64,000 nucleotides of DNA from Acanthaster planci (GCF_001949145.1 NW_019091361.1:372001-436000), one strand, 5' to 3'; counted from the first letter of the stretch, positions 19,432 to 58,500 are shown. Notes: a model not told the origin generated them from the letters alone. Numbers and translations: made by a program.

Positions 19432-20862
19432 ATGAATGACACGGACAACACGACAGCTGTGACCGACTACTCTGACTATGTCACCTCCCCGTCGTCATTT
19501 ATGGACTACAGCAATGATACGACCCTCAATGACACCAGTACCAATACGACTACTGATTCTTCTCTTGCTCTGAACGCAGGGCTCGGTAGCTTGTCATGTG
19601 TTATAACACTGTGTGCCATTTTGGCCAACTCACTGATGGTGGCTCTATTTGCACGCTTCCCCGGCTTAAGAAGTCCAGGGCCAGCTTTCCTTCTGTTGAA
19701 TATGACAGTAGCAAACTTGATAGTGGCAGTGACAGCCCTGATCCCAAATACAGTTGCTTTCTTTGTGAATGGGTGGCTTTTAGGAGACCTTGTATGCCAA
19801 CTCAGCGCTTACCTCTCCTGCTTTGCCTTCCACTTGACCGTCCACACTATGGGCGTGGCGTTCTTCGAGAGATACCTCAAGGTCTGTCGACCCTTGAAAC
19901 ACGCTGAGATCTTCACAACAGTGGTGACCGTCATCCTTGTCGGCGGACTCTGGTTCTTTGCTATGGTGCTTGCCCTTTTCCCATTAGTTGGCTGGGGCGA
20001 ATACGCTTATCTTCCTCTTCAACGTCAGTGCTGGATTAGCCCGGGTGGTTGGCAAGGACATCTAAGTCACATGGGGTTCACCCTGGTTTTGACATTATTG
20101 CTACCCGTCCTCACATCCCTAGTCTGTCTGGTCACCGTTATAAGATTTGCCGCCAAGAAACGCAAAGTCGGCGCTCTCGACGTTCTTGGAGACCAAGGCA
20201 AAACAGGAATTCAGGAGACTTATGGACGCAAAATGAAGAGAAAAGAGCGAGAACTTAAACAAACCATCAGGGAAAGGAAGCTCAAGAAAGTGAAGAAAAA
20301 GAAGGGGAAAAAGAAAAAGAAAAAAGAAAAAAAAGATGACCAGTCATCTTCCTCATCTTCGTCGTCGTCGTCGTCGTCGTCGTCATCATCATCATCATCA
20401 TCATCATCGGATGAGGACGAACGTCCTTCTTACAAAAAGTACAAGGAAGCTAAGAACAAGCAGAAGGCAGAGCGCTACCGGGCAAACGAAGCCGCCTTAG
20501 TCCGTACTCTTACCTGGATTTTGTTACTTGTCCTCTTGACCTGGGTTCCTTACATGGTTGCCAAATGTCTCCAGACTCTGGAGCCCACAAGCGGTATAAT
20601 CCCACCAGATGAATTCCTGATTGTTGCTGCTTTCTTGACATATTCTACGCACGCGATCATGCCAATAATATTGTTACTGGACTACAGGAAGTACCGTAGA
20701 GCTGTTGTAGCTCTCTTTTCCCGCAAGAAAATGGAAGTGGGGAAGGACCACGCCCAAAATCTGGACCTGGATTTGGAACAGGGCGAAATGGACTCTGGCA
20801 TTGAGCTCACAAACGCTGGGAATTTAGCTGAGGGATCTAAAACTAGCGTCAAAGCTGATTAG
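19432..20862 (+). CDS. Orphan class A (rhodopsin-family) GPCR, single coding exon, 476 aa
   Basis: Seven hydrophobic segments, an N-terminus with five N-x-T sequons, TM1 AN, WLLGDLVC before TM3, ERY, TM4 W, PLVGWGEY...C in ECL2 and TM6 TWVP. There is no Lys at the opsin retinal-binding position. Confidence 0.93.
   Translation: MNDTDNTTAVTDYSDYVTSPSSFMDYSNDTTLNDTSTNTTTDSSLALNAGLGSLSCVITLCAILANSLMVALFARFPGLRSPGPAFLLLNMTVANLIVAVTALIPNTVAFFVNGWLLGDLVCQLSAYLSCFAFHLTVHTMGVAFFERYLKVCRPLKHAEIFTTVVTVILVGGLWFFAMVLALFPLVGWGEYAYLPLQRQCWISPGGWQGHLSHMGFTLVLTLLLPVLTSLVCLVTVIRFAAKKRKVGALDVLGDQGKTGIQETYGRKMKRKERELKQTIRERKLKKVKKKKGKKKKKKEKKDDQSSSSSSSSSSSSSSSSSSSSSSDEDERPSYKKYKEAKNKQKAERYRANEAALVRTLTWILLLVLLTWVPYMVAKCLQTLEPTSGIIPPDEFLIVAAFLTYSTHAIMPIILLLDYRKYRRAVVALFSRKKMEVGKDHAQNLDLDLEQGEMDSGIELTNAGNLAEGSKTSVKAD
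20344..20409 (+). repeat. Coding (TCN)22 poly-serine repeat in GPCR ICL3
   Basis: Blocks of TCG and TCA codons giving 22 consecutive Ser, between a Lys-rich block and DEDE. Confidence 0.9.
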
Positions 20863-24043: not shown

Positions 24044-35105
<11,062 letters not shown>

Positions 35106-37200
35106 GATACTGAACCATCTTTGTTACTTAAAGATATTTACTGATAGGCTTCTCACAATGACGTCAAACTTTGTTTACTCGTGCACTTTCCTATCCGGTT
35201 TGTAAGTGACTTAATGATACATGCGCACGCACCACTGATGACAAGCCTTCATTACATGAGCCTTCAAGTTGAGCGTTATCTTCCAGTTCCATGGTTCAAC
35301 GTAGGTCTATGTGCAGTGGGCGTAGTTTAAACTGAAGTGACCCCACGCTTACAAACCAGATGGCAATGAGGTGGGCCTTGATCCATAGCCCCCTTGAGAA
35401 AATGCACGCAGAAACAAAGAGTGATATCATTATGTTAATAGCTGGATATTATTCCATTAAGACTAGCCTTGGTTTGGTCATTGCCTGTTATATCTAACCC
35501 TCAACTGAACACAGTGTTGTTCAAGACGTTTAAGGTGAAGTCCAGTGATTATTTTGAAGAGGAAGGGTTTATATTTGTCGTAAACTCTGTTTAGACACTC
35601 TCCAATGTAACAGGTTTGAGATGCATGCTGCCAAGCTTGAAAATAAAAGGGAAAAACAAAGAGAACAAAGGGTGTATGTCATAAGTGCTTAATGGTTTGA
35701 ATTCACCAATTCTGGTAGATACGAACTCAAGTCGGTAATTGTCTGGGTTTAGTCTGGCTTCACTGCTGTGTATACTGTGTTACATACAGCATGTGGTAAA
35801 ATAACATCATGCAGAAATGGTCAGTGCAACTCACCCCCAGTATGCATGTGAGTCATCTACCAATGACCAACTTAAATAATCTGCCAGCTCCTGGGAACCT
35901 GCTACCAATATTGTATGGAGTAGTCTGATTGGCTCAGAATGATGACATTATGAATATTCATTTTTGGCACAATTTAATTGGTTTAGAATGAAAGTAATGT
36001 AAATATTCAAGCCTTGCTGTGTGCCCATGTACTTGCACACATGCTGCTTTCACAACAGAAATTGTCTACACTTCCATCCACAACATTGTTTGTTCATCAT
36101 TTCTTTTGATTTTTTGTCGTTCAAATAACACAGTGGAGGTGTTAGAGTAAGGAATTACCAAAAAGCAAAGAGTTCTGTTGGCCATGGCTTGAGAAAACCA
36201 GGATTTTGAGTACTCTGAAACCCAAACAAGCTGAGGTAATCATGAGATTTCTACCAGACGCGTACATGTAGGTGAAATACCTGATTGGTCCTGTCTGTAG
36301 GAAGGTTTATGCAGAGGCTATTAGCTTGCTGCTTACTTGAATATCTTCCCTCAGTCATATTGGTCAAGTTTGACATGTTGGATTGCAAAATGTTAAACAG
36401 AAGGCTTAGTATTAACATTAATGATGCAGTACTGATGACATAAAAGGATAAACACGACTTTTTGATGACTTGATTTCAAGTCCATGATCTTGACAGTACA
36501 GCATTATTTGAAAAGTTGACAGTCAACACTAACAGTGCTGTTGGGAAACAATTATTAAAAAAATATACTGTGGATGGTCAATTATATGTCTTGTTGGCGG
36601 GATAAATGTACTGCCAGCATGACATATTATGTTATGTTAAGTTTGTTTTCATGTTTAATCATTATTCTATTCATAAGGCATAGATTTTTGTTTAGTTGTA
36701 AGATACAAATTTTATGCATCTGGTTTCTATTACAATCACTTCCATATTTTTGTGTAATATTTGAAAGCTATTTTATGATAATTTAAATCTTTTCAGAAAT
36801 CTGGTGGCATAAATGATTTAAATTTTTTGAACAGAATGCTGGATTTAGGCAAGAGTGTGAGGGGTCAATGAACCTTCTTAGTACTGGCATCTTTCTCTTA
36901 AGACGATGTGTCAATGTATCAATGTTGCAGGTCGCATAGGTCCCAATTGATTGAACCACATACTTTACAGAAATTTCATGAATATTTTACATTTTTTGGG
37001 AGAGGATTCAATACCATTGCCAAAATTATGATTATGGATTGAAGTTTGGTATGAGAGCAGAAGAAATCATATACATCAAAACAATAGTGCAATTCAGATA
37101 CATTAAGTAGAGCAATTCTAAAGCAGTAAATATAAAGTCTAAATTTGTAATAGATAAATGTGTTGAAAACTTAAAAATTTGTATAACCCACTTGTATGTA

Positions 37201-37206
37201 AATAAA
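37201..37206 (+). terminator. Candidate polyadenylation signal for a long (~2.1 kb) SIRT2 3' UTR
   Basis: AATAAA in an A/T-rich context ahead of the convergent gene's 3' end. An earlier AATAAA lies near 35642. Confidence 0.3.
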
Positions 37207-37700
37207 TTGTTTCCAACTTTGGTAAAAATTAAACAGTGGTGATAGTGGAAGTCGGATACCTTTGAGGTAAATGGAAGAAATCAACCCTGGAATGTGGAAT
37301 GAGTTTTACCTTTTAAGTGAAAGGTTTTTAGTTTTTCGTGATTTTTTTTCACCTGCGTATGGAACATGATTTAGTCTTTCAAAAACCACTGACTGTTAGT
37401 GCCAGTGACCCAACGAATGACCACCTGCAACTAAGTGGTGAGGTTGCTAATGGACAGTCTAATTATATAAATTATATAAAATTATATAAAAGGGAATGTT
37501 GGGCATCTGAAATGCTTAATATTATGCACGAAGACAAAAATTGTTGGAAGCATCATTTTTGTTTAACATAGGCCTACAATCGATAATCCCATACATTTTT
37601 CTACATTTTTATTTTTTTAGTAAACTCGGACAACCTTTTCTGATTTAGGAAGAGCAGACTGGAAGGTTAAGTCTGTGCTAAGCTACCCACATCAGGTAGA

Positions 37701-40700
37701 TTACTCACGACCGAGACTGCATCTTATTTGGCGAATTTTTGTTTTCATGTCCTCTTGTGCAGGGCAATTGATCTTATCAGCGAGATCATTTACAAATTTG
37801 TTCACCTCTGGAGGTGGTATTTTACGATCTTTGGCGGACGAGGATATCCATCCTTGAAGGTTGCAAGGGACTTGGATGACACTGAACAAGGCATCAGAAC
37901 TCGGTAGACCCGACCTGATACTTGCGCGAGTAGCCTCATCAATGATTGATTCGGAGGCCGATTCAACTGATGTATCTCTTACTTGAAACTTCAAAGTCTC
38001 CACTTCCGTCGTAATATCCAGCGCGTTTCCCATTCGTTTCGCTTCAGCTTCTGCACCGGCAATACGCCTCCATTCCTTCTGCATCAACTCCGAGACTAAC
38101 TTGACTGTTTTAAATGCACACCGGAGATATTCGCAAGCTTCAATGTCACTGTGGTACTGCATTGGAACCTTTATTTTTGTATATATCGAAAGGATTCCAC
38201 AGAAAACAGCAAGAATAAAGAAGATAACCGCCGCAATACCCGACATGATAAATCCAGTTTCCTGTGAGGTAAAATACAGAGATCGATTATTTTTCCAATT
38301 TTATAGAAAACATGACGTGTTTTATTTTCAACACATATACAGGGAAGACTATAGTTATATTGATCAGTTGATCCACAATATTTTATCCTCGTGCATCAAT
38401 AAAAATCGTCTTCACCCCAGACTATCTTCTATACTTGACATCCTCAAAGAACTACAAAAATTGTACTAAATGTTGGGTGTTTCTCTTTCCCCTGATAAAG
38501 GTCTGGAATTGAGGGCCCTTTCAAACCTGTTGAAGAGTTAAACTTAATTGCATTCAATAACACTGCATTTCCCCGGCAATTTCTTTTCCAAGTTGTGGTT
38601 TATGTTTGAAGCAATGTTATTTTGGTTTCCCCAAATTCAAAGGAATTTTTTTATTCTAGTAAGAAAACACTCAGTTTGGATTACCTACGGAAACTTATGA
38701 AAGTCGCTGAATCGTCTAAACCACACCTACTGCGTCCGCTGCATGTGAAAATGGCTACGTAACACAAAGACTCGTCAGAGTTTGTTGGAAATCACGGGGA
38801 GGGATGGCATACGTAGGTGTCTTCTTATAATAGAATTGAATATCTTTGGGGGATTTTTGAAATTCTGTTACAGTTCATCGGTCATAAGAAGATGGTTTCG
38901 ACTGTCACCTGTAGTGTGATAGCAAACCGTGAACGGATGCGTGTATCACGTTGGAGAGCCCCCGTATAGCAGAGCGGTGGCGCGGTCATGGTTACCAGAA
39001 CGACATGGAAAATGGCACCGCGTCTTGGGGACCAAATACATTGTGAGCCTTCCCAAAATGTGGAGAATTCTTACGATGCGGTATGCAATAACGTTATATC
39101 TCATGGGGAACATCTTTTAAGACCTCATGGGAGACAAATTGCAAGGACAATCGCAGCTGAACTATCGATGGTCGTTAGGAAAATAGGACTACGTATAGGG
39201 CTGAGAATGTGACGACAAAGCTGGTACGTTGGGGCCAGATAGTAGTGACGACGTCGATGGTAGGGGCATCACCACCATCGACATCATTATTTTTATTTAT
39301 TATAAGTTTATTTGGCCATCGACAACAACATGTACAACATTAAAGAAACAAGGAACAGTCTCATGAAAATTCCACAAGACTAAGCATAAAGAAAACAACC
39401 CAATTCAAGCTGGCCAGGGTTGACAAAAGTGTATCTAAACACTGTGGCTCGAAAGCCTGTCAATCCAAACTTGAACTAGGAACGCAAGGTAATTTTTTAA
39501 ACAAAATGCAAAACAGAATTGGATTTTATTTTAAAAAGAATACAGTACCCAGTTGGTAAATTTAATACAAATAAATGCTGATAAATCAGTTTAAAACATG
39601 TTATGTTTTTACAAACGTCAGTGTTTACAAAAGTTGAGTGCCACACGCGCAATGCACACTAAACGTATCCCTGAAAAACAATCAGCCTTGAACGGGGCCA
39701 ACAGAAGGCGCGATTTTCTTAGAAAACTCTTTTGATGGATGAAAAATGTACTTTGCTGGTTTACAATCGGCAGTGAACTGCATGACTTTCGGTCGTATGG
39801 CTACTAAGACAATGAATACTCTCCCCAAGGCATGTGATGAGGGGGTGCTTTTGCCCTAGGCAAACAGGACGAGCCTTTGTGGTACACGACACATTTTGTA
39901 TGGTAGGCACGAAGGTGTGGCATGGGCGACTTTTCCAGTCAGGTTTATGTAAATTGAGGTTAATAGAGGTGAGTCATTTTCTATAATGAAATCGAGAGAA
40001 CACGAGTCACTAGGGCCTACTAACTAAAGTTCACCACCCAGTCTAAGTAGGTTTGATGAATTAGGATTTAATTCTTGACACTCGAATACAGGTAGTACTC
40101 ACCCAAATAATCGGAAGGGTAAATTCATCAGTACAGCCCAGGCGAAGGCACAACATCAGTAAAACGATACAAAAGCAAAAAAGACGAAAGAAGTGTTCAC
40201 CGATGTCCTATGAGGGAAAAAAGATTATCAAATGTTTACGATTTGTTGAGGGGTGCAGCATTTACGTCGTTAATTTTACTCCTTGGGCGAAGAAAAAGAG
40301 GAAATGAAGGTCTCAGAAACACCAGCACGATACTCAAATTGTCAATGAAGGGTATTCAAAGAAAATATCTTATGTGCTGTGACCACAATTCACAGGAGCG
40401 AAAAAAAAATCGGGGGAGGGGGGTTTCAGATCTTTTCATGTCACTGTCACTGACCATTTAAAATGATGACCCTTGCAGATTGTCATGTTGTAATTTTTTT
40501 ACCACGATGGTTGTTAATCATGTAGTTTTGTTATGTGTAAATTTCTACCAGAGCAGAGGGGGTTGACCCCTTCCAATCTGGGTCTACATACTGGCCTTTT
40601 CTGACTTGAAAGCAAAAAATCAGTGATACATTCGTTAGTGGATTGAGAAAACGATTTTTAGGGTATTTTGCTTATAAATGTTGACCACTTTGAGCAACTG

Positions 40701-43700
40701 TAAGAGTTATTCTAAGGATGCTCACCTTAAAGACCCAGATGACTGGTGCTGAGTTCATTTTGGCAGATGTTACGCGATCTTCATCATCCCCAACCTTATC
40801 ATCAACTTCATCACTTCCCCGTGAGTATGTCTTGAGCAGTGTACCAATACCAGTGAAAAGCAGGAGGACTGTGACCAATGCGTACATCAGGTACGAACGG
40901 ATATTTTCATATTTCTATTAGAAAAGATAAATACCTCGTTTAGAGCCTTGAGCACTCCTTGTTTGAACTAATTTAATATTTTTCACATGATTCAAAAGAA
41001 GCGTGACAAAAAAAGTGAAAGATGGTGCAGTCGGATTTTCTACTTGACATTAATATCGAAAAGCAATTTGTTTTGTAAAAAAAATCTGAGAACCTTAGAG
41101 AAGGAAGATCAGAACGATGGAAAACTTCCGATTGATTTGGGATACATACAACTTCAATACATTGATTAGATTGAAATAAAGACTTAACATACATCATAAC
41201 AATGGGAACGTATATGTATCACAGTGACGTTGTAGACGTGGACAGTAAGAACGTCTTTGAAGTCCGACTCAGCGTATGTGGAGCTCAGGAAGGCGAGAGT
41301 AGTGAGAAGAGTAACCATAGCAACAACGAGCATAACTGCAAACTGTTGGTGAAAAGAAACTGGTATGATATGTGGTGTTTATTTTCTTGAACATATCTTT
41401 CGATAAACACGCAATTACATTTCTGGCTTTTATCCCGAGGAGACAGACATGTATAAGTGCACTTACTGCCAGTATCGTGGACAATCAGCTCGTATCCCGT
41501 TTATTTTGCATGTACCTGCATAATGATCCTTACTGCTTGAATTCGTACCGATTTCACGCATGTTTCCTCATTTAAAAAAAAATTATCACATGTATTTGAG
41601 CGTTTCAAGGACATTTAGAATTCCATAAATACGTCAGGAGGGAGAAGAAACAAATATGCAAACAATAAAAAATCCAGTATTTGCTTCAAGAAATTTCGCT
41701 GACAGAAAAACTCGGGCATAAAAGTCTATGTCAGGACAAAATTCGCGCAGCCGTACGCCTACTCAAACGCGTACTAAGGCCGTGTCCGAAATCGGCTTCC
41801 AGAGCTACGGCTAGGTCTATTGTCTACGCGTCTCCACGCATTTCCAATGGAGTGAAGACCTAGACCTAGCTCTAGACAAGAGATTCGGAGTCTCAGAATG
41901 ACGTAACCTTTTTCAAATATTGAACTGGCTCAATATGCAATTCCTTTACAGTTGGTATTTTGTCAGAAAACAGGCCTTTGACTCAGTCTCTGTTTTTAAC
42001 GTCCCGTGTGCATGGGGGATCTGGGTGGGAGGGGGGAGATTGCATTTCCCCTCGCGGTGGGAGGCGTCTTTCCCTCTGATATTTTCCTTCACTACTGTAC
42101 ACATTTTCTTTCAAAGAATTTTGAGGCATTGAACAAGCTTATTAAAACATTGGATGGGTTGTTTGGACTCATGAGCAATTCAATAGTCGATGATGTTTAC
42201 GATTCATTATAAACCTACCTCTGCAAGTATTTTCTGTACTGTAGAACGTGTGTAATCACAAGCAACTCCACGAAGCATCTCTACAAGTGCCTTACGACGT
42301 CGAACATATTCGACTGCTGCTTGCTCTAAAGTGTTCAGATGCTGGTCAAGACACTGCACGCTTATGATCCTTTTAATGACAGCTGTCAGGGAAAAATCAT
42401 GACCAATTAACATCACCTGATAACTTCTCTCTGAAGGCAAAAGATTACAAAACTTACTCTCAAAAAATAGTGAGTTCCTTATAAATCCACTCCACGCAGA
42501 AAAATTTAAAACCACCGTAAAAAGAGAGAAAACTACTGGTTACTCCGTAAGAGTGAAAAATCACTCGAAAGAGGAGTTATATGAAGGACAACTCTTTTTC
42601 AAAGGACCCCTAAATGACTCTTTGGAAGAGTCCGTACGTACCGTATTTGATCCCGAGATTTAGGAAAAAATGGTCCATTCACTACTTCGGTCGGGCAAAA
42701 GTGTCACAGCAACAAAGTATATTAATCTCAATTCTTATTTTACAACCAGTTTTGATTGTCACCAAGGACTAAACTGTGCCCAAGCAATTCGTGTTCCGTA
42801 TTTCCGTATCTCACTTCGTCAGATTCACTATATACTTAATTATAGGCAGTCCACAAGATGCCTAACCTACAGTTACAAGTACATCAAAGATTCTTTGAAT
42901 TCTAACTTGTAATTGGTTGTTTAACCTCCAACCAACTTTGATTTTTCCCGAAACTATGTTGATGTAGCTCAGTTCACGTTTTTCTCACCTTGTCCAGTTA
43001 TCTTTCCAGACCTCCCAAAAAATTTGCAACCCATCTGGTAGTCGTTCTCAGATACTTTCACCGTTTCGATTGGTAAGTCTTTTTGCAGACATCGTTTCAG
43101 ATCTCCAGTTAAGTACATCTTCCAGAATCTTCTCAAACCCTCCAGACTTCTAAAACGCCAAGTCACTCTTACACATCCGTCCCCTACGCCTGTCGTCTTC
43201 GCGTCACATTCCTTTAATATGTCTTCCAACGACGTGATTCTTGGCTTATTTTCTCTCACCATATTTTTGATTTTTTCCTGAAGTTTCCGAGTTTCTTCTT
43301 CATTCATCATTCCGTCTTTTATTGCGTAAAGCTTGGCTGGCATATCTACAGCAAAGAATAGGTTTAAACATTGCAACGCGAAATTGTTTTGGGCCATTTC
43401 TAAAGAGCAAGTCATTTGTGTACAAATAATTTGAATGAAAAAACCAAATACCAAGTGTGCTCCATATGAAATTTCTATAATGTGTAAGTTTTAGTTAAAA
43501 TGTGTTGAGTTAGTAAAATGAACTTTGCACTACCTACACCCAGAGACTGATCGGCAAATTTTTGCACTCTAGTTATTGCATGTACATGCACTTGATCTTT
43601 AAATCCCAACTATGGATCCGATTATCTCGATGCGAAAATGTAAAATGTTGGCAATATTCAGAGCATGGATACAATATATCTGGACACAATTCACGTCTGT

Positions 43701-44098
43701 GGAACTGTGGGAAGTTGGTTCTCACCAAAATAGTACTTGTTGTCTCTACTGCATCCAAATGTAACAGGACTGTTGTTCAGAAAAAAATGGTTGTTGATGA
43801 TAATAGGTGGAGGAGTGGAAGAGTTAGTTTCCTTGGATTCCTGTTCCTTCTCTGAAGACGTGTCACTCCTTTGCCATCGTGATTTTCGTTGACCCTGCCT
43901 CTTCCGTCTTCTGACTGTATTATGGAGAAGATCCGTCTTTTGCCCTGAATAGTACGTTCATAGAAACTTGATTTTCAAAGAAAATGACAACAGTATATTC
44001 CAGTCATTTAAAAACACAGCTTGGTAAATTGTGGTGTCAAGTCAAAGATGCTAAAAAATCTCACCTGATTTTCTCTTTGACTTATACTCAGGATGCAT
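37701..44098 (-). CDS. Uncharacterised multidomain membrane protein: cRHIM-like motif + TRADD-N-like domain + apolipoprotein-L-like region, 7 coding exons, ~557 aa
   Basis: Exons 44098-44065 (exon starts at 44154), 43944-43726, 43345-42989, 42382-42219, 41342-41193, 40914-40726, 38261-37701. All are GT-AG with polypyrimidine tracts, phases 1,1,1,0,0,0, giving a 1674-nt open frame. A further in-phase upstream exon ends at 44671 (TATG|GTAAGC), so the true start could lie further upstream. The gene model is well supported; domain names are by-eye inference. Confidence 0.8.
39290..39720 (-). mobile_element. Degenerate 3' end of a CR1/L2-like LINE
   Basis: Minus-strand translation ALRVWHSTFVNTDVCKNITCFKLIY resembles the LWN...FK..K tail of L2/CR1 ORF2, followed by an A-rich tail (tttatttatt on +). 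Confidence 0.35.
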
Positions 44099-47000
44099 TG
44101 TGTACAAATTCAACTTCCGTCTCTCCTTCCAAATACTAATACACTTCACAAAATCTGAAGATGGAAACAACAAATTAGTCTTCTTTTTATATTTTACTTC
44201 TATTTTTTTAAATATAAACATCACGTTCCTCTAAACCTTTTAATCCCGTTTCACGATTTCACCACACGTGTAAGTATGGAATCATTCAGCAGTGCCATTC
44301 TGAGAACATGGTTTGTGGATGAAAGGTAACACTTTTGAACAGATGTGGACGGACTCTAACCCAGACCTCAATTGCACGTCATTCTCCCTAGTAGACCTAT
44401 TTCAAGCTATTTACATGTGTACATGTACATGGATCATGACCTTGAGCTGCGTGATCACAACCACAGATGAATTCAATTTGAATCAAGACTAGCTTTGAAT
44501 GATTTAAAAATCTGATCCTTACGAAGCCCACGAAAAGATTGCGGGAACAACGTTACAATTACCGAAACAGTGTGTTCGGTTTGGTCGAAGAGAAATGAAA
44601 CATACTCCCCTCCGTAGTTTACTCCGTAATTCTGCCTTTTTATTTATCAACGCCGAGAATCTGAGCTTACCATAAAGGTTATTGTCTTCACTGACCTCTT
44701 GTACAAATAGGTCCGTCAAGAAAATCTTCTCATCGCTCCAAACTCCAAAGAAAATACAATGTACATCCTCTTTACAGCCCTCGTTTCCGCAGCTTGAAAT
44801 TAACCACGGTCAACTTCAGCATCGAGTAGTCATGGTGGAACAATGTTACGGAAGTATATTGTTGCCACCAACATGAAAAAAATTGCAATTCGTATAAAGA
44901 ATATAAAATCCAAACGAGACTGACAAGTCTGTTCATGGGCAAGCTATTTGAACGGTATCGTGGGAAGTTGCTTAAGGGGATGTGGTACCCCCTTTCGTGA
45001 TAAACATAATTATTTGTAACACCGTATCGTTTAGCGTCCCCACCCCACTGGACGGCAAAATAAGGTCAATTTTAAAGAGTGGTGTGGGGTACAGGTTAAG
45101 CACACGGATGCGGTAATATGGGGGCTCACTAAAGGGAGCACTCGATGCGCTTAGTCACCGTTACCGAGGCGGACTATCACCAGATTTTTTCTTCTCTAAT
45201 ATCTGAGTGAGGATAATATACTGGGGGGGGGCTGTAACCTCATGCCCTCATCTTTATTAGTCACGTGGCTACTCTTAACAATGACACTTTGTGTCAAAAC
45301 ACATCCAGTCTGATTTATTTTGAAAAATGCTCGTCGTATGGATATTCCAACCTATCCGAACCCTCACCATTATAGGAATGTGAGATAATATAACTTGCGT
45401 TCTCCTGTCGTCTAGCGACAATTTTATTCCTCCCTATCCCCATTCAAATCAGCTGAGTAACACCTTTGCATTTAAACAATTTATCTAGGACGACTTTGTA
45501 TCTGGTTCAATCATAAAGGACATAATACCTTTATTTCTTAACGTTGGCAGAAATAGGGTTCCGTGGATGGTGTTCAGTTCCGGGGGAAAAACCTAATCTG
45601 TGCAATGCAGTTAGGGATATGTTGAAGTATGACCGACACAATAGGAGGGCGCTATTTGAAGTGTGCAAATTTGGCACTGGTGGATAGGACCCCGATTGTG
45701 TTTGTTTTTTTATATGTCCACAAAGTTTAGAGTAAACACAAAAGATTTTACCCAAACCAAAATGTGCCCTCCTATCCACCTTGAGCAGAAGCACTCCCTC
45801 ATCGGTTGGAAAGAGTCATTTGGGCTGGAGTGTCCATTTTCTCGGTAGTTATTCATCTGTAACGCGTGCATTTCATAGTCGTTTGTGAACTAGCAAGTCC
45901 TACCAAATAAAGGAGCCTGCGTTGCTAATGAAATTGCACCCTCTCTTGGCCCAGCTCGGGGCTCATTTTGTCAGCCATATCAGCTCAAACAGACTTATTC
46001 GTGTGGGCCTGTTTTTGAGCAGAGCCAGATTGCAATCAGTGATCTGACTTTTTTAAAATTCTGAACCCGCTAAGTGGATGGCACGAACCAGCCGCAGGAC
46101 GGCGCAATTATCAAGGAGGGCTTGTTTTATGATAAATTGACAATTCTTGAAGTATTTTATAATCCGGCAATATGTTATGGTCTTTCTGTAAACTGTAATA
46201 AAAATGTTAGTTTAAGTTATACATGATTTAGTAATACATGAGAAAGTAATAATTCCATATGTATTTTTTCCTACAGTAAAACAAGTTTTTCTGGTCATGG
46301 AAAGGAGAGTTTCTTCCTAAGCTGAAGTCAACTTTGTCTAAATCGGTTCCAGGCAAAACTTACGAACCCGCCGCAGGAAACAATTCTGCAAGATTTGACA
46401 ATTCGATAAAAACGTTGCTCCAAATCCTGCAGATAAGGACATCTTTCAACTGAAAATCGGTCAGAATCAAATTTGTAATAATTTTACGTCAAAATAATGG
46501 CGGACAAGTTAGCAACGCGCACGCGTGCAATGTAGATACTCTCTCAAGGCATCGGAGCAAGTCATTAGACGAATACGTCATCCACGGTTGAAAAAAACGT
46601 AGTTCCGAATGGTTGAGAGTATCTTTTGATATAACAAATAACCAAACATAATGTTGTCGGAAATATTACAACATAATGTTACGTACATGTATAGGCCTAC
46701 ACACAGAGTCTCTGTACGTGAGGCAGATTATGTAGTGTTATACCGCACACGATTTTGTGTGTGACCCGCGTTTGATCCTTGGCCACACTATAGTCCAGAA
46801 TATTTTTAAAAATCGTAATTTTTCCAATTAAATTTTTTCGTAATTTTCAATAGAAAATTGTCATTTTTCCTGTGTGCACGAGATCATCCTTTCTTAGTGT
46901 GATCCCCTTCCAGCAGGCCTATACGTAGTATAAACTACATGTACATCGTTAGTGTCTCGGAGCCAACCTGTGCATTTGTAAAAACACCGGTCTACTGATG

Positions 47001-48644: not shown

Positions 48645-51572
48645 TCAGATATTCAAATCTGGATTCAAATTTGGTTCTATGTTGAACACTCTACTGTTAC
48701 GGATTAAGAATTCGAAAAGAGGAGTTGGCAACCACCGGGCTACATTGATCAGGGTGCCCGCCAGTAGACCACATTCATAGCAGGCACTGGGCACTCGCTC
48801 CAATAAAGCCCTTGTTACGGTGCGACAAACAGGTGACACGTCCGTTGGGATAAACGATGGATTTATGACGTCAAGTGTCGCTTCAAAGTATCCTGGTGTA
48901 TAATATTGCTTGAGTTCAGCGGTAAGTTGTTCAAGGCACTTACGTTGGTACTGACGCATGCCATATCGGTTGGTCGTTAGGGCTGTGAAACATGAATAGA
49001 GACTACATTCACTAAGTTTGATAGCCGTTAAGTATCAGGTCAGGTGACCCTATTACGTCAGGTGACCCAGGTTGGGTCAAGGTGACCTAAGTTCCTACCC
49101 TAACCTTTACACCTTGGTCAAATATCGGAAAGCTGCTTAGCAAATTCATGTGCTATTATAAGTAAAAAGAAGGGCACCAGTCACTAGAGATGTAGGCACG
49201 ACTACTGGTAAGCATTTTTTAAAACTTGGTATCTAACTTTCCTCCCCATAATGAACAAAAAGTAGTTTCTTCATTCACAGATCTGTCACATTGTAAAGAC
49301 GCGATCTCCTCCATGTCTATAGCTGCATATACATGCAGCCAGTTTTTAAATCCTGAGTTGAAACTTAGCTAGTGTTTCCTCCATGACATGGTTTATGTCA
49401 TTGAATAGTGACATTCCAATTTCATCTAAAATAAAAAAAATCTCTCATTGAATTTATTCTATGTTATAAAACAGACTCGTTGCACCAGCATAAGGCGATG
49501 CGATCATCTGAAGCCTGCCTTTGCACCTATTGTGACAGAAGGTGCTACAAGGACACACACAGTTCATCACCTGTCCGGAAGCTTCCTGGGTGAATGGTAA
49601 TCACTTGGATTCCCCACTTCCTTGCTTCTAGTCGTAAGATATTGCAGAACATCTCGGTTGCTGCCTTGGATATGCCGTAGGCCCCAAACAGTGGCATGTA
49701 GAAACTACCTGTGTTATAATTACAGCGGTTATTTGTCATAATAATATCATATGCCTTAAAATAGGAAAAATCTTTGCGATTTCTGTTCCTCACAACACAT
49801 TAAACTTACACAGGACTTTTTTCCAGAGGAAGAGGTGGTCCTCTTTAACTTTAAGTTCATGTTCAAGTATGTTTTGGGGATAGAGATATGGTGGAACTAA
49901 AAATCTTAAGAACTCATTTTCAACTCGGGGGTAACTTGTGTCTTTGCGCATGAACATGATATGGAAGAGTTGCTTTGTACTGCCAAACAAGCAATGCACT
50001 ACAGCAATATATCATTATCAGTTTTGAACACTTTTACACTTCAAACAAAGTAACAGGTCACAAGCTATATAGTCAGTCGATAATATTTCCAAATAGGTCA
50101 CTTGTGAGACATTTTGTGGTAAATTTTTCAACATTATGGAGACATCGGTCATTAGGGAGACAGTCTCCCTAATGCTCCAACTACCAAAAGGAGGAAAAAT
50201 TTTATCGTCCACATTTTGAGAGATGATATAATAGTGTCTGAAAGGAAAACATGCAAAGTTTGGTTAAGATTGGATAAGGGGAATATTGAATTATGGGACG
50301 GTAAAGTTTGAAAAATTGTGTGCACGTTCCTATGGGAATGTCTCCAAAGTGACCCATTTTCAATAATTATAACACAGGCAAACATTAGATTATACTGCAT
50401 CATATGGTAAGACGTACTATTTACGCTGTTGATACTGATGACTCGACCTCTGGTCTTGCGCAATAGAGGAAGTGTTGCCTTGACAACACGGATCTGACCC
50501 AGCAGGTTCACATCCAGATGATGTTTGATTGTCTCCATGGGCGTGACCTCCAGCTCAGACCAAAGGCAGATACCTGCATTATTAACCACTCCCCATAGGC
50601 CTGCAAGGGCAGAAAAACCTAGGTTACATTTGAACGAGACACACCTCCCAAAGGGAGATTCGTCTTACCCAGCCATAGAAGTGATAAACGATAGCTGCAT
50701 CAGCCTTTTTTTCATAAGGTTAAATATCTGTCGGTTGCTCCTTATCTTTGTATCCAATTATCTGTCTCTCTGCTGTTTGATTGCACAGGTTCTTTGGACA
50801 ATATCTTATCTCCCTACCCTCATTTCCAATAGATTGTGTGATGGTTGCTATGGCAGCGTCAACATCCTCCTGTTTGGTAACATCCAATGGGATTACGCGT
50901 AGCTTTTCCGAGCATTCAGCTCTCAGCCGAGAAGCGCCTTCACCGCCTGGAAACAGACAGCCTGCAAAGACCTGAATCCCAAGAGCATCCAAATGCTTTG
51001 CAGTTGCATGGCCGAAACCACTGTCACAACCTTGAAATCGGGGGATTAAAGCAATCCAATCATTCCAACAAGCAAATAATTATTCAAGGAACAAATGGTT
51101 TGTTCGCCGGTTATAAAATACATTTTTATCTCAATAGGCCTAATTGAACTAGCGTCTTCATCTTAAAATTTGTACTCACCGATTTCGCTTTTAATTCCCG
51201 CGCAATCTGCCATTAAGCCCATGCTTCACGCTATTACGACTGAACAAGGACATTAAAACCCTTTGGTAGACAATGCCCTCTCTGAATTTTCGTAAATTGA
51301 TAAATTCCACTCTTGTCACGAAAGTTGTACATGTACAAAGTAGAATTTTCGGCAATGACATGCTCATAAAACCCTGTTGGTATGATTTTACCTGTTATGA
51401 AGACAGACTGTTTCTCAACTTGTAGGAGATTGGGCCCAACATATTTACGAAGGTATGCCACGAAAGCACTAAAACCCAGCCCGATAAGTATGTTCCTCAT
51501 TGACAGCTCCCAAGAAAAGCAAGTGATAATTAGAACTAGACAGGCTGAGAGACAAACCGTCGTAGATAGCAT
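48645..51572 (-). CDS. Short-chain dehydrogenase/reductase, SDR9C type (BDH1/RDH16/HSD17B6-like), paralog B, 5 exons, ~350 aa
   Basis: Exons 51572-51392, 51030-50818, 50600-50418, 49708-49571, 48982-48645, all phase 1 (1053 nt). Hydrophobic N-terminal anchor, VFITGCDSGFG, VFAGCL, LDVT, GLWGVVNNAGI, catalytic YGISK, IHPG. Confidence 0.93.
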
Positions 51573-51599
51573 TATGAAGCACAGAGTGGTGAGCGTTGA

Positions 51600-51608
51600 T
51601 TATATATA
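51600..51608 (-). promoter_or_regulatory. TATA-box candidate for SDR paralog B
   Basis: TATATATAA on the minus strand about 30-36 nt upstream of the ATG at 51572, which implies a very short 5' UTR. Confidence 0.35.
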
Positions 51609-54289
51609 AAGTGGCTTCTGAGCGATCGACTCGTAAGGATGACACTCTAGGACATAATGTTAAGTATTGTAATGCACAAATCTATATAGCAAACGTTATC
51701 TTTGCAAATCTGAACCATGAACATGTAAGTTTCCCAACGCTCAAAACTTGTATGGTAACAGACTATGCGAAAATTGATACAGCCTATAGCGTTAATCGAA
51801 TGACTCGACAGAGACAGTATGTTGCCTTGATTCACCTATAGGATTGATCAAAGTCCATTTCACAAATTATCGGAGAGTATTATGACAAACGCTCGTGTGC
51901 ATGTGTGGTTTGGTCAAAAGTCTCCCCCTGTTGCGCAACTCCATTAGACCGATGTTAAAGCATACTTCATACAGAGAAAAATTAATGGTTTATGCGCTTA
52001 AGGACAAAGGACGTCCATTGATTCCTCATTTAGTTGATTCGTTGTGATGCTACCATTTCCCACCGAAAGTCTAATTTATGGACCATTTATCCATTCCCCA
52101 TTCAACAAGTTCAAGGCACAAAGATAAATGAACTTAAGTTATATCCAAGACCTGAGTACTTTAAACACAGCGTGCAACAATGAGCAGTCATCTCTTTGCA
52201 AGGTTATCCTATATCTTGTTTGCTTTGTTGTCGCTGATGTTTTTGTTGCCGTACAATTCAATCGCATGATACCACTTTTTTGTAAAATAAGTTGTGGACA
52301 TAAAATACACAACTTATTTTACAAAATATCAGAATAAAAGGAATCTTGCTGATTGTAAACACCACAATAGACACTTTATTTAAGAAGGCAATACATGTAT
52401 ACTATAGCGCTAAGAAGTTGAACCGCAGATACGACCAGTTGAAAGTGGGGAGACGCACACTGAAGCATTGATATTGTGCATGATTCATGGTCAGTATTGA
52501 CAACGCTGAACGTTAACATCAAGTAAAATATATGTGATTCACATCGGAGAAGATAAAAGTCCACGTTCCAAAATTAACGTAGACATTGCAAAGGTCGGTG
52601 ATGCCACGATGGATTAATTTGAAGTGCAAACATTTACACGAGAGTCGTAACTGGGCCACTGATGAAACACACGATTAATGAGTCATGGGGGGGGGTTAGC
52701 ATATTTGCAGGGCAGTTGTTATGTTCCACAGGGAAACCTCTGTGCATACCTTGTGGAACAAAAGCACTTGCCTGCAAGATGGCAGCCATGCAAACCCTCT
52801 ATAATGTGGGCTTTTTAAGAGAACCCACTGTGTCTTGAAGCATGGAATCTTGGCACATTTTTGTCCATAGTTGGATTTTCCTCAAGGAGGCAGGCAATAA
52901 CTGGTTCCTGTATATACATTTTTTGGTCTCATTTAATCGGATTTTCAACTTTTTTTGTAGTGGTCTGGCCCCCAGCCAAACGCTCCGGGGGTGGCGGTCC
53001 GCCCACCACTGAAGGGGGGAATTAGAGGCCAGGCAAAACAGAAAACTCAGCAGGCAAAAGACTTGGGTACTTCAAACGGGCTGGATTCCTTTTATTTCAT
53101 CGTCACTAAATAATGAAAACTGCTTGGACAATTATATTTGAAAGATGCCACAATCTATGTGATTCCCAGCGGAGCCATCACCACGACCATCTACCCAGTT
53201 GTCTAGCACAGCACAGCACTCCCGAAAAAAATCCTTGGAAACCCGCCAAACTTCTTCAGTCCCGCCAAAAAGTACAACATTGCAGGCCACTTCCGGCCGA
53301 CCGGCGTGACTTTAAAAAATACAATTTAACTGGTTTTCTTTGTCGAGGAAAGCATGGAAAATTTGAAATGTTTAAAAACAAGCATGGCACTTTTCAGCCT
53401 AAGTCTTGTCTGCAAGAGTAGGGTTCCGTAGTCCTTTGTACACCCGAGGGGCTAAATGGCACCGAGGCCGCAGATATAAACAGAACTGATGACGGTCATA
53501 TCAGAGATAGTACTTCACCTTCCCTTATAGCACATCTCATAGAAATATTAATTCATAATACCAGCTTCCCTACAACCTCGTATCTAACGTCGCGGTAAAA
53601 GATACAATACATGGAAACGTCACTTTGACCAGCGCGCTCGAAAGATCAAGGTGATGGATTCGCTAGTCACCCCAGCACCCAAGGGCGCTGCAAGGGTGTG
53701 TGAACTTGCACTGTAATTGGCTACATTGTGCATGACCAGCGACCGCTAGGTTATCACTTCCTTCTAGCGAAGCGCTATTTAAATACTTCGGTTTGCCAAT
53801 GGCAATTTTTCGACAAAGTGTTGGCTATATCATAAAAAACATGGCCTTGGTACAATCACAGTGTGGTAAGAGGAAGTAAAAGAAAAAAAATATTGAACTG
53901 ATAACCGCCGCTTATGTAACGCATTGAGCGAGCTCGCGCGCCTGGCAGAAATTTACCCACAATGCTCTGCGTGTCGTTAGCTGTGACCCCATGTGACGTA
54001 TTTCCTCCACTAAAATCTGTGCAAGGCCATCCGAGCGAGGGAAGGGAATGAATCCTTGAACTTTTCCCTATTCCTATTACATAGGGACCGGCAGCTAGCT
54101 GCAATTTAAGGTATACGATTAGCTCTGTCAATTTAGATACTGGAATATTTAAGTTTTTGTCAGGCCAGTACAAACACTTTCACGTGAATTACGTCTAGCG
54201 CTATAGCGGAGGAGTTGTTGTTGTTTTGTTTTAATGGCGCTTTCAGAAACTCAGGTTATTTGCACCAATTATTGTAGTTTATTCATACA

Positions 54290-54480
54290 CTTTATTAATC
54301 AGCATCACATTACAGAGTTAGGAAAAATGGCCAGTTTTAGAGGCAGGAGGAAACCGGCGTACCCGGAGAAAACCTCCGAGATCGAGTAACCAAATGCACT
54401 TAAAGCCTGGGCCAGGCTGGAACTCGAACCCGGGCCTCAATGGTGCAAAGCAAGAAAAGAGCTGCTATGCTAACCCGCTC
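54290..54480 (-). mobile_element. tRNA-derived SINE
   Basis: Contains ggaggaaaccggcgtacccggagaaaacc, a conserved central motif of widespread invertebrate and fish SINEs, and a B-box-like gggttcgagttcc on the minus strand near 54418-54431. Confidence 0.7.
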
Positions 54481-55543
54481 CCCTTGTGGAGAAGCGAATA
54501 AAATACAAGTACCTACCCTTTCTAAGCCTCTGTTGATCGCAGTGTGGTAATTTCCTTTTAAATGATTATCATCGATAAATCATTTTACTGCATTTTATTT
54601 CAAATCAGTGGTTAATCAGTGTTAAATTTTAGAAAAATGAACAATTTATGGCGAAATTAGTTTCGTTAACAAAGAAGAAAAAGCAAAATATTCTATAAGC
54701 TCATGCTTGATATGTGCATTGAGCGGGCTTCGTTCCCTCAGTTTACATAAAACTGGCAGGATTCTGCCGGATTCATTAGCCGCTACCGGTCCTTACTTTC
54801 GGAGGACGTCTGTAAGACGTCTGGAGACTACGAATTGGACGGGAACCAGTTTAATGGATCTTGTGGGTACAGGGTATAGGTACGTAACTCGCAAACCATG
54901 GCGGACATCGCTTAAGAAATTCCTTACTGATGTATTTGCGTATTTGAGGCATATCATTTGATCAATGTACGACCAACAAAAATTCACAGTTTATTACCAT
55001 GGTATAACAAAAAGAAACGTCATGTAGCTCTCTCACGTTTTATAGGAGTAGGGTTCCGGACCATGTTATTGTTAGCATTAGAATCAAAAATAAAATGAGC
55101 CGTATAATATATTTGAGATATAATTTTGAGACAAGGGCCGTATAATAATAGCCATATTAAACTACAGTAAACAGTTAATTGATAGATACAGGTGGTTAAC
55201 ACTTTCCACATCCCCAAAAGGGAATATTTGTGGGTGTGACAAAAACAAAACTTGCTGATATAGAAATCCATTGAATAAACAATGTTAATATATAATTAAG
55301 GCTCAATAATTGTTATGATTGATATTACATCAATGCACATGCATTTGTGGTACACTCGTGATTTTCAGTGCAGTAACGACCCCCCCCCAAAAAAAGCATA
55401 ATCGCACCCGGGCTTTTACAGGCTTTTCCTTAGGTTGGCAGACTGAAATTAATTGCCGAATAAGTAATGAGTTAATTGGGTATTTTGCAATTTGTGAGGA
55501 ACACTGATGTGATTATGAGAACCATCTCTGTTCAAGGTACCGA

Positions 55544-58500
55544 TTACCGGTAGCGTAAAAAGGCCAAAGACCTAGAGTTTACTGTCATCTTTGATCGTAT
55601 GCGGATTAAGACCTTCAGTTCCTTGTTAAACAATTTGCTGTTGCGAACAAAGAATTCGAAGAGCGGAGTTGGCAAAAACTGAGCCGAACGGACCATCACA
55701 CCTGCAAACGGACCACACCTATAGCAGGTACTGGGCGCCCTCTCCAATAACGCTGTTGTCACTGTGCGACAAACAGGTGACAGATCCGTGGGAAGAGTTG
55801 AGGCGCCATTATTATCGAGCATTGCCTGGAAGTATTCCGGTGTGTAATACTGCTTAAGGTCAGCGCTAAGTTGATCGTTGCACTTCTGTAGATATTGACG
55901 CATGCTGTTTAGGTTGGTCACGAGGCCTGTTGAAACATCACATTGTAGAAAAGTTGAAATAGGGATTATAAATATCAATATAACGCGGGTTGAATCCGCG
56001 GGCACACCATGCGAATTGGGTTTATCTCGGCTCGTTTATGTGGGCCTGCCGCAGAATACAATGAGCTTTTCTTCCTTCAAGTAAACTTGCGTTTTCCATC
56101 GTCTTCATTCAAGACCGCCAGTCAGTGGTGTGTCACGAGTAAAAAAACAAGAAATTAAACAACAAAGATTTGCGTCTTCCAATATTGTAAGACACTGACA
56201 AAATTTGGAGCAATTAGCCAGCTACAAGACAGAAAAATTAAATGGAATGCACATGCAAAGAAACAAATCCAGTGACGGATGACAAACAGCAACATTAATT
56301 ATACGAATAGATCATGCAGACATCAATACGAAATTGGAGAGCAACCAAGTGGAAACAACCATTAGGAAGTTAGGCTCGAGATTGCACCAGGAGAGTCACC
56401 CTCCTGAAGACGAACTGAGAATGCTGTTCGGAACGTCGCGTGTGTTCACCATCGGATCTTCTCAGAACCACGCACTCATAGAAGAGATATTTTCTTGTAC
56501 ATGGTGCAACCGCAAACCTAACCTAAGTTAGTACTTCCACCATGCATAGCTTCAAGTCTTATCCAATCATTAGAAATAATCAACAATATGCTGCTATTTC
56601 TCACCAGTTCGGAAGCCTCCTGGATGAATGGTTATCACTTGGATTCCCCACTTCCTTGATTCAAGTCGTAACACATTGCTAAACATTTCGGCGGCCGCCT
56701 TGGATATGCCGTAGGCCCCAAACAGCGTCATGTAGAAATAACCTGTTTGTCAGGGAGGTTGCTGTTACCATCACACCCTTCCAAGATCACGCACAAATTC
56801 CTCCAAAATCATGTTTACAAGTTCAGTTCTCCGAACACATTATGGCACATTAGGTTCACTTATACACTATTAATAGCCATTTTATTTGCAAAGTCTTTTT
56901 ACAGAGCACTAAAACTCCCGCTTAGGTTTGAAACTAATAGCAAAAACGATTTAATGGGATATTCTGAAGAAAAAAATGACCAAAGACAGAAAAGCTGAGA
57001 GAAAGTGATCAAAATCGCACCCTTGTACGTTTTCAATGGCCCGCTCACACTTCTTACCGCCAAGGCCATTTGTGCGCAGGCGTGCATAATTATGAATTTA
57101 TTGGTGGAAAGGTCTATTGCTTGGGTTTGACGTAGTTGGTCAAGTTCTTATAAATGTGACTTTCGTACGTGCAGATAATTCAGACCAAACAGTTTCAAGG
57201 ATTTCTTTCCTTTTGCGTGTTCTGATCAGCGATTCCAGCATTGTACTGAGGAAAGCTCAACAGTATAATACTCATTTTGATCCCCTTGCAACCTTGATGA
57301 CTTTTGTCTGGATCAATAAGCAACATGTACTATGTGACTGATGACTTCACGCTTTGTTTATAGGTGCACTTTCCTATGGGGGCCCACAGTCCACTGAACT
57401 CATAAGGAGAGTGCACAAGTAAACAAAATGTGGCGTCATGGTTTCACGTACTATTTGTACTGTTGATACTGATGACTCGACCTCTGGACTTGCGCAATAG
57501 TGGAAGCGTTGCCTTGACAATACGGATCTGACCGAGCAGGTTCACATCCAGATGTTGTTGGATTGTCTCCATGGGCGTGACCTCCAGCCTAGACCAGAGG
57601 CAGATACCTGCGTTATTAACCACTCCCCAAAGACCTGCACTGGGGAAGAAACATAATGTTATCAACATGTTGCTGCATTATATTATACATGTGAACGTCA
57701 CTCACTCATAAACTTCTTCAAAGGAAGATTTATCGGGCATACATTTCAACCAGGCGCTTGCTAGCCGTAAAATTGAAAATTATTTCATTTCCTGTATTGG
57801 TAAGCCCATTGGCTGTTTTCATGCGCCTGCAGTGGTCTATCCGGTTATATCTTCGCCTTTGTCTGCAGTTCTCTGTCTTTCTGCTGCTAAGCTGTAGAGT
57901 GTCTACCTACCCTCATCTCCAGTGGATTTTGTGATGGTTGCTATGGCTGCGTCAACATCCTCCTGCTCAGTAACGTCCAATGGGATAACACATAATTTAT
58001 CCGAGCATTCAGCTCTCAGCCGAGAAGCGCCCTCACCGCCTGGAAACAGACAGCCTGCAAAGACCTGAATCCCAAGAGCATCCAAATGCTTTGCAGTCGC
58101 ATTTCCGAAACCACTGTCACAACCTTAATCGAAAAAGAAAGAACTTCAAACTCGTTAACAAAATCGTTGACGAAATCGCTTGGTTGCCTGCATAAAATAA
58201 GTCACCATATAGCCACTGTTTCTTGTGGTCAATCGTGATCAAATCTGGTGTCTTCTTATAGCTCTGCACTCGTTTATCTCTTCTTTCGATTCTCCCAAAC
58301 AGTACAGGGGTGTAGCCATGGGGGAGGGCCTGGGGCAAAAGCTTCCCCCCCAAAAAATAGACCACCACAAGCTGCCCCCATAAGATTCTGGTGCCCCCTT
58401 GTGCCCCCATTAGTAAAATCATAGCTAAGCCACTGAAACAGCAGCTATATAGCCAGGCAGGCAGCCAACTCCCCTTTGCGCCCACAAATGCAAACCGGTG

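Follow-up and report, generated by a model that had tools for sequence, protein, structure and literature searches.

Among the closest known systems to the protein studied here are the invertebrate DEDD2-clade TRADD-N proteins of Kaur et al. 2021 (PMC8195603), in which TRADD-N is likewise preceded by a recruiting part and followed by a variable C-terminal one. In that paper, a uS (or uC) motif in the beta2-beta3 turn defines the domain, binding of TRAF MATH by TRADD-N is described as not universal, and TRADD-N is proposed to restrain its flanking domains until a signal arrives, the one on its N-terminal side being a recruiting domain and the one on its C-terminal side an effector. Its Figure 4 source data list our protein, LOC110988373, as TRADDN-DEDD2+TM+TM+TM+TM (592 aa) and label a paralogue, LOC110987722, as TRADDN-Bac+TM+TM+TM. 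The main text and most of the supplementary files name neither ApoL nor RHIM. Our protein (P0001 from here on), by contrast, has no Death-like domain.

The second comparison is with the ApoL family (PF05461; APOL1, APOL3 and APOLD1), to which the N-terminal helix and the C-terminal helices of the putative effector part are homologous by way of another starfish protein, P0011. Human APOLs have a Gly/Ala-rich hydrophobic hairpin. P0001, in contrast to the family, has four bulky hydrophobic segments, about 130 extra residues and a fused TRADD-N and motif. APOL3 is described as a membrane-permeabilising immune effector (PMC12139963).

A third group is formed by the RHIM and cRHIM proteins. The core of PGRP-LC reads VTFG, and in RIPK1/3 the downstream Asn stands three places after the Gly, against five places in P0001. 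What P0001 has in common with the cRHIM proteins (Drosophila PGRP-LC, PGRP-LE and Imd; shrimp SRB2) is a VxxG core in a stretch predicted to be disordered, followed by Asn-x-apolar; PGRP-LC is moreover a membrane protein with a cytosolic motif, a placement that is predicted for P0001. The differences are the non-canonical tetrad of P0001, the proline before its core and its lack of a PGRP, kinase or Death domain. The cRHIM core is defined as VxxG/IxxG with an invariant Gly (PMC9387487, PMC13506858), and the canonical RHIM tetrad as (V/I)Q(V/I/L/C)G (PMC9444067). According to Kajava 2014 (PMC4262963), Asn-x-apolar follows the core in RHIMs, short divergent RHIM motifs carry little statistical power, and amphioxus RHIMs occupy the usual place of death-fold domains.

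Finally, fungal HET-S/HeLo and HELLP and bacterial BASS are described as carrying, on a single chain, both an amyloid-type motif and a helical domain active on membranes (PMC9387487, PMC13506858). In those systems the effector occupies the N-terminus and the motif the C-terminus, whereas P0001 has its motif at the N-terminus, TRADD-N in between and an ApoL-derived putative effector part. HET-S-type effectors are soluble until triggered; P0001, unlike them, is likely already in the membrane.

The preliminary description of this DNA had proposed a cRHIM motif, a TRADD-N-like domain and an ApoL-like domain in a single protein, and knew of no described protein that combines them. The three-part anatomy stands: the gene makes an eight-exon message encoding a TRADD-N domain and a C-terminal part that descends from ApoL (at aa 210-258 and 443-589), together with a conserved motif that also occurs in Death-domain and MIB-type proteins of the same species. 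An intact ApoL hairpin and a canonical RHIM, on the other hand, are absent. As for novelty, the protein and its TRADD-N were already in Kaur et al. 2021, but our search of the open-access literature for the motif (or RHIM), TRADD-N and ApoL together found no paper, and neither the ApoL descent nor the shared motif nor the rebuilt hairpin seems to have been catalogued.

Results

The window is the whole stretch of Acanthaster planci DNA that was analysed, 64,000 nt in length. On its minus strand lies one spliced message of 592 codons in eight coding exons, the single gene in its region, read from the ATG at 44098 to the stop at 37701. The translation (592 aa) is exactly that of RefSeq P0001 (LOC110988373, A. 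planci). The features, in window positions, are as follows.

44671..44814, minus strand: 5' non-coding exon; its joint 44154/44671 (GT-AG) occurs in raw reads as well as in contigs; upstream end approximate
44065..44154, minus strand: coding exon 1, ATG at 44098, aa 1-11; joint 43943/44064; translation equal to P0001
43726..43944, minus strand: coding exon 2, phase 1-1, aa 12-84, predicted disordered basic region with the motif at its end; RNA, translation, pLDDT
43727..43807, minus strand: RHIM-like motif, aa 58-84, core VTFG (aa 72-75) at 43765-43754; conserved, held-out scoring
42989..43345, minus strand: coding exon 3, phase 1-1, aa 85-203 (119 aa), TRADD-N domain; PF20694, 1F3V, Kaur 2021
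42219..42382, minus strand: coding exon 4, aa 204-258, first ApoL-like helix; alignment to P0011, ApoL-like profile, orthologue
41193..41342, minus strand: coding exon 5, phase 0-0, aa 259-308, carrying hydrophobic segment 1 followed by a loop that holds the sequon N296-V-T; RNA, hydrophobicity, translation
40726..40914, minus strand: coding exon 6, phase 0-0, aa 309-371, carrying an acidic loop besides hydrophobic segment 2; RNA, hydrophobicity, translation
40103..40207, minus strand: coding exon 7, phase 0-0, aa 372-406 (35 aa), hydrophobic segment 3; joints 38260/40102 and 40206/40725
37701..38261, minus strand: coding exon 8 (aa 407-592 plus stop codon), with hydrophobic segment 4 and the C-terminal helices that resemble ApoL; phmmer, hhalign

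All seven coding junctions have GT-AG ends, and each of the seven is supported by RNA reads or contigs. This evidence comes from eight of the 24 listed runs, four of them recorded as raw RNA-seq and four being spliced contig sets that we took as RNA. Joints 43943/44064, 43345/43726, 41342/42219 and 40206/40725 were each seen in two sets of RNA alignments; joints 42382/42989 and 40914/41193, as well as the joint between exons 8 and 7 (38260/40102), were each seen in one. Two contigs show that the parts lie on one message: X4 record 7 reaches from within the motif exon to exon 6, and X2 record 1 spans exons 3 to 7 and continues into the letters of exon 8. In the raw-read runs, depth over the coding exons was below about 2 in three and rose to 5.6 in the second alignment set, and contig depth on the gene reached up to 34 in one run. 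The GT-AG ends of all seven junctions, their read or contig support and an orthologue in Patiria (P0002; 46% identity over 583 columns) argue that this gene is not a product of chance.

The single minus-strand frame over 44098-37701 in the preliminary description was correct, and the RNA-seq check that it proposed for the splice model found the exons joined on one transcript. Its count of seven exons and about 557 aa has to be revised to eight and 592 aa, since the exon at 40103-40207 had been missed. The seven-exon 557-aa model is an open frame, the same minus exon 7, and we rejected it as the main form: RNA joints flank exon 7, and no joint skipping it is among those listed for the one alignment set that covers 38260, a listing of all but four of its joints.

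The product of exon 3 (aa 85-203) is a TRADD-N domain, and the TRADD-N-like character expected of the 119-aa exon at 43345-42989 was borne out by profile, by the fold match to 1F3V and by the listing in Kaur 2021. Pfam PF20694 matches exon 3 at E 8.7e-5 and 22.7 bits, below the curated cutoff of 23.7, and the close relatives P0003, P0004, P0005 and P0014 pass it at 27-28 bits. The structure model was built from a 15-row alignment, with pLDDT of about 66-92 per block over aa 81-200; a single-sequence fold of P0001 was poor (pLDDT 40.6). The best structural match of aa 79-194 is human TRADD-N, 1F3V (Z 7.4, rmsd 3.6, 106 aligned; next match Z 6.2), and Foldseek of the whole model against 1F3V gave a probability of 0.99 with a weak E of 0.16. 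The predicted model contains the RRM-like alpha+beta sandwich of 1F3V, and the uS/uC turn motif of Kaur corresponds to G141-C142, between the predicted strands 133-139 and 143-149.

By sequence comparison, aa 210-258 and 443-589 are of ApoL descent, a transitive assignment made via relatives. For the region 42382-37701, described earlier as ApoL-like, homology was supported through starfish P0011, but a direct Pfam ApoL match and an intact hairpin were not. Neither P0001 nor its Patiria orthologue P0002 matches Pfam ApoL (PF05461) at E up to 10, and among the fused paralogues only P0020 does (E 0.67). P0011, from Acanthaster, was among 13 matches in 1.84 billion representative proteins (phmmer E 4e-5 to P0001) and passes Pfam ApoL at 68.2 bits against a cutoff of 25.9. 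In pairwise comparison with it, P0001 aligns over aa 448-589 (E 4e-12), and aa 210-247 align to P0011 aa 11-46 (E 1e-4). An ApoL-like profile built from P0011 and three fused paralogues, with P0001 and P0002 excluded, scores P0001 at 41.0 bits, the best of 500 shuffles reaching 4.6; exon 4 scores 21.4 bits on this profile and is 66% identical in the Patiria orthologue. Profile against profile (hhalign), a Pfam-positive starfish ApoL set matched aa 443-589 over 137 columns with a probability of 97.3%.

In the Atlas, all 30 of 30 matches of aa 150-383 of the paralogue P0021 were ApoL or APOLD1 clusters (best 0.92, 203 of 256 features shared), on a scale where shuffled proteins score 0.9 in 4-10 of 100 cases and protein parts are uncalibrated. 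The Atlas feature search with P0001 aa 204-592 gave no usable match, and all Atlas structure matches were below the naming threshold. The fold search for a solved ApoL structure returned only generic helical bundles, and the PDB sequence search with P0011 found no ApoL. Fold matches to XaxB (Z 8.1) and HlyE (Z 6.7) were set aside, as they lie within the range expected for any bundle.

The C-terminal part is helical and hydrophobic, as first described, but the hydrophobicity profile has four strong segments in place of the three reported. Their Gly+Ala content is 13, 14, 5 and 19%, against 40% and 49% in the hairpins of P0011 and P0021; the Gly/Ala-rich ApoL hairpin is absent from P0001, and these bulky segments stand in its stead. 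Positions 12-76 of the ApoL-like profile fall on P0001 aa 215-279, and positions 69-229 on aa 362-543 of the Patiria orthologue. The profile thus puts the hairpin halves on segment 1 and the last segment, suggesting that about 130 residues, mostly on phase 0-0 exons, were inserted at the tip of the hairpin. Among the hydrophobic segments, the fourth is conserved best (59%), and exon 7, with segment 3, is only 14% identical in the Patiria orthologue, which has three strong hydrophobic peaks against the four of P0001.

The loop after segment 1 holds a sequon, N296-V-T, with N283-T-T at the aligned place in the orthologue, which is modest evidence, coming from two sequences. Counting charges by the positive-inside rule pointed to no clear topology. 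Bulky hydrophobic segments and a conserved sequon suggest that P0001 is likely an integral membrane protein, inserted beforehand. They point to a membrane-resident protein and away from a soluble lytic domain of the HET-S type.

The N-terminus is basic and predicted to be disordered, in line with the earlier description (aa 4-79 have pLDDT below 50 in the predicted model). Between the orthologues, the motif at its end is 45% identical, against 32% for the preceding region and 68% for TRADD-N. A related stretch stands directly before TRADD-N in 10 of the 15 starfish proteins examined; the C-termini of these proteins differ, and their architectures include Death+TRADD-N+MIB_HERC2+ankyrin and ubiquitin-like+TRADD-N. 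A motif unconserved in orthologues had been named beforehand as counting against the idea; it is conserved in the orthologue and shared by 10 starfish proteins.

When scored against five other copies with its own held out, the P0001 motif was the best window and was matched by none of 200 shuffles; P0006 and P0013 gave the same outcome (0 of 200 each), the motif windows having been chosen by eye. A regular expression was derived from the same sequences, and its 10 matches are thus no test. Of the five proteins that it missed among the 15, P0012 is divergent, and the other four begin at TRADD-N or shortly ahead of it. The Gly is invariant in all 10 copies, with windows anchored on it, and the first core position is V or I in seven and L in three.

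Pfam contains a RHIM model, and no RHIM family was among the Pfam matches of P0001, its orthologue or its relatives, a search of low power for short divergent motifs. PDB sequences gave no match to the alignment profile at E up to 10, RHIM included. The core VTFG agrees with the VxxG/IxxG definition of cRHIM and departs from the canonical (V/I)-Q-(V/I/L/C)-G; the downstream Asn-x-apolar pattern of Kajava 2014 is present. Of the RHIM/cRHIM motif originally proposed, the conservation and the loose cRHIM core were upheld, but the canonical tetrad and a Pfam RHIM match were not.

Three paralogues of 382-390 aa, P0021 (A. planci LOC110987722) and P0019 and P0020 (Patiria), have the motif, TRADD-N and an uninterrupted ApoL-like domain, and they fit the idea of RHIM, TRADD-N and ApoL in one chain better than the window gene does. 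P0003, P0010 and P0022 (Patiria) are truncated-looking relatives. All named relatives come from Acanthaster and Patiria, which reflects the reach of the search and not the range of the family; a scan of metagenomes yielded no related loci. In an unrooted tree built from 12 TRADD-N domains (P0004, P0008 and P0009 left out), a long branch, supported at 100/100, parts a group with clean ApoL domains from one with expanded membrane segments, and the Death/MIB proteins fall on the latter side. This topology may reflect two fusions, or one fusion followed by swapping.

Discussion

We tentatively favour the reading of P0001 as an ApoL-derived, membrane-anchored effector that is switched on by motif-driven clustering, and rank it over a signalling platform, a non-amyloid motif and decay. 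We do so because the motif stands in the recruiting place of Kaur's model and the ApoL part in the effector place, and because APOL3 permeabilises membranes. The ApoL-derived protein would likely be anchored in the membrane from the outset, with segments 1 and 4 as the old hairpin helices, about 130 inserted residues between them and a glycosylated loop on the far side. The motif would fill the recruiting role that a Death-like domain has before TRADD-N in related architectures and, lying in the cytosol, would likely co-polymerise with its counterparts in other TRADD-N proteins of starfish. Clustering could then lift the restraint imposed by TRADD-N, which is what Kaur et al. suggest for the family; once clustered, the helices derived from ApoL might make the host membrane leak, killing or disarming the infected cell. 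We consider it slightly more likely than not that the motif forms a signalling amyloid. No immune genes were found among the neighbours within the 64,000-nt window, which we count against an immune effector. Also against this reading are the missing Pfam ApoL and Atlas matches of P0001, the lost hairpin chemistry, the non-canonical tetrad with its preceding proline, the lack of a RHIM match and the three hydrophobic peaks of the orthologue.

Two further readings seem unlikely to us. In one of them, P0001 would be a membrane-anchored signalling platform like PGRP-LC or shrimp SRB2: the ApoL part would serve as anchor or sensor, the motif would nucleate a fibril recruiting Death-domain and MIB-type ubiquitin-ligase partners, and the output would be gene induction and not lysis. 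Possible partners do exist in the same species, sharing the motif and carrying Death, MIB_HERC2, ZZ and ankyrin domains, and both the loss of the Gly/Ala hairpin and the conserved sequon suit such a role. Insect cRHIM amyloids are also reported to signal without cell death (PMC9387487, PMC13506858). However, the short far-side loops (at most about 34 aa) are conserved to about 30%, against 66% and 42% between orthologues for the ApoL helical regions, and Kaur's model assigns the effector to the position that follows TRADD-N (PMC8195603).

The other unlikely reading concerns the motif, which would be a short non-amyloid beta-strand accessory of a TRADD-N subfamily that folds on partner binding, leaving TRADD-N alone to gate the ApoL-derived domain. 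The motif may be such an accessory, since every one of its 10 copies immediately precedes TRADD-N; hardly any linker separates its C-terminal side from that domain, seven of the 10 copies have a conserved proline right ahead of the core, the tetrad is non-canonical, and neither Pfam nor PDB sequence gave a RHIM profile match. The predicted model, though, leaves the motif in a low-pLDDT stretch, outside the TRADD-N fold and off its sheet. The motif also has its own phase 1-1 exon, separate from that of TRADD-N, and is rich in Asn, aromatic and beta-branched residues around the invariant Gly. Besides, one Patiria gene has a RefSeq isoform with the motif (P0019) and another that keeps TRADD-N without it (P0009). 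The motif-less isoform, if real, could act as a regulator. The two differ by 39 residues, which hold the motif.

That the gene is a neutral or decaying product of exon shuffling in a fast-turning starfish family, its ApoL part functionless, is improbable: depth below about 2 on the coding exons in three raw-read runs, the truncated-looking Patiria relatives (P0003, P0010, P0022) and the poorly conserved segment 3 fit decay, but the frame is intact, splicing is complete, contig depth reaches up to 34 in one run, and an intact orthologue in another genus is 68% identical over TRADD-N and 66% over the first ApoL helix.

The membrane effector that we prefer could belong to something wider. It is possible, though rather doubtful, that sea stars have an amyloid-linked immune network in which the motif plus TRADD-N is joined to swappable outputs (Death/MIB-type ligase or ApoL); its ApoL members would be polymer-triggered single-chain membrane killers, in parallel to fungal HET-S, and the window gene would be a version whose ApoL hairpin became a multi-pass membrane domain. 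If true, amyloid signalling in an animal would be tied straight to an ApoL effector, and the unknown 'TM' effector behind some invertebrate TRADD-N domains would have a name. The gene also offers a handle on Kaur's TRADD-N switch model, which is still a proposal, and a probable natural case of an ApoL hairpin rebuilt through exon insertion. Even should the amyloid step fail, re-annotating the protein with ApoL after TRADD-N and a shared motif ahead of it is of use.

Several minor observations concern the surroundings of the gene and of its relatives. An in-frame 3-base loss in exon 6, at window position 40862, occurs in one run and is likely an allele. The intron between coding exons 4 and 5 contains a 116-base high-copy repeat (41774-41889) of very high depth and with many unrelated flanks, likely a short mobile element, and a second repeat-like stretch lies at about 45630-46000. 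Over 36000-37335, RNA depth is clearly above that of the coding exons in three raw-read runs; one contig extends from exon 8 down to 36430, likely reflecting 3' ends that overlap a neighbouring transcript. The neighbours are a rhodopsin-family receptor in a single long frame (19420-20862, plus strand), a Sir2-family fragment (29304-29702, plus strand) and apparently duplicated short-chain dehydrogenase exons (48645-56035, minus strand). In Patiria, the same longest contig, of 38,186,250 bases, is reported for P0003, P0004, P0009/P0019, P0010, P0014, P0020 and P0022, which suggests a cluster on one scaffold, and some of these genes resemble split gene models.
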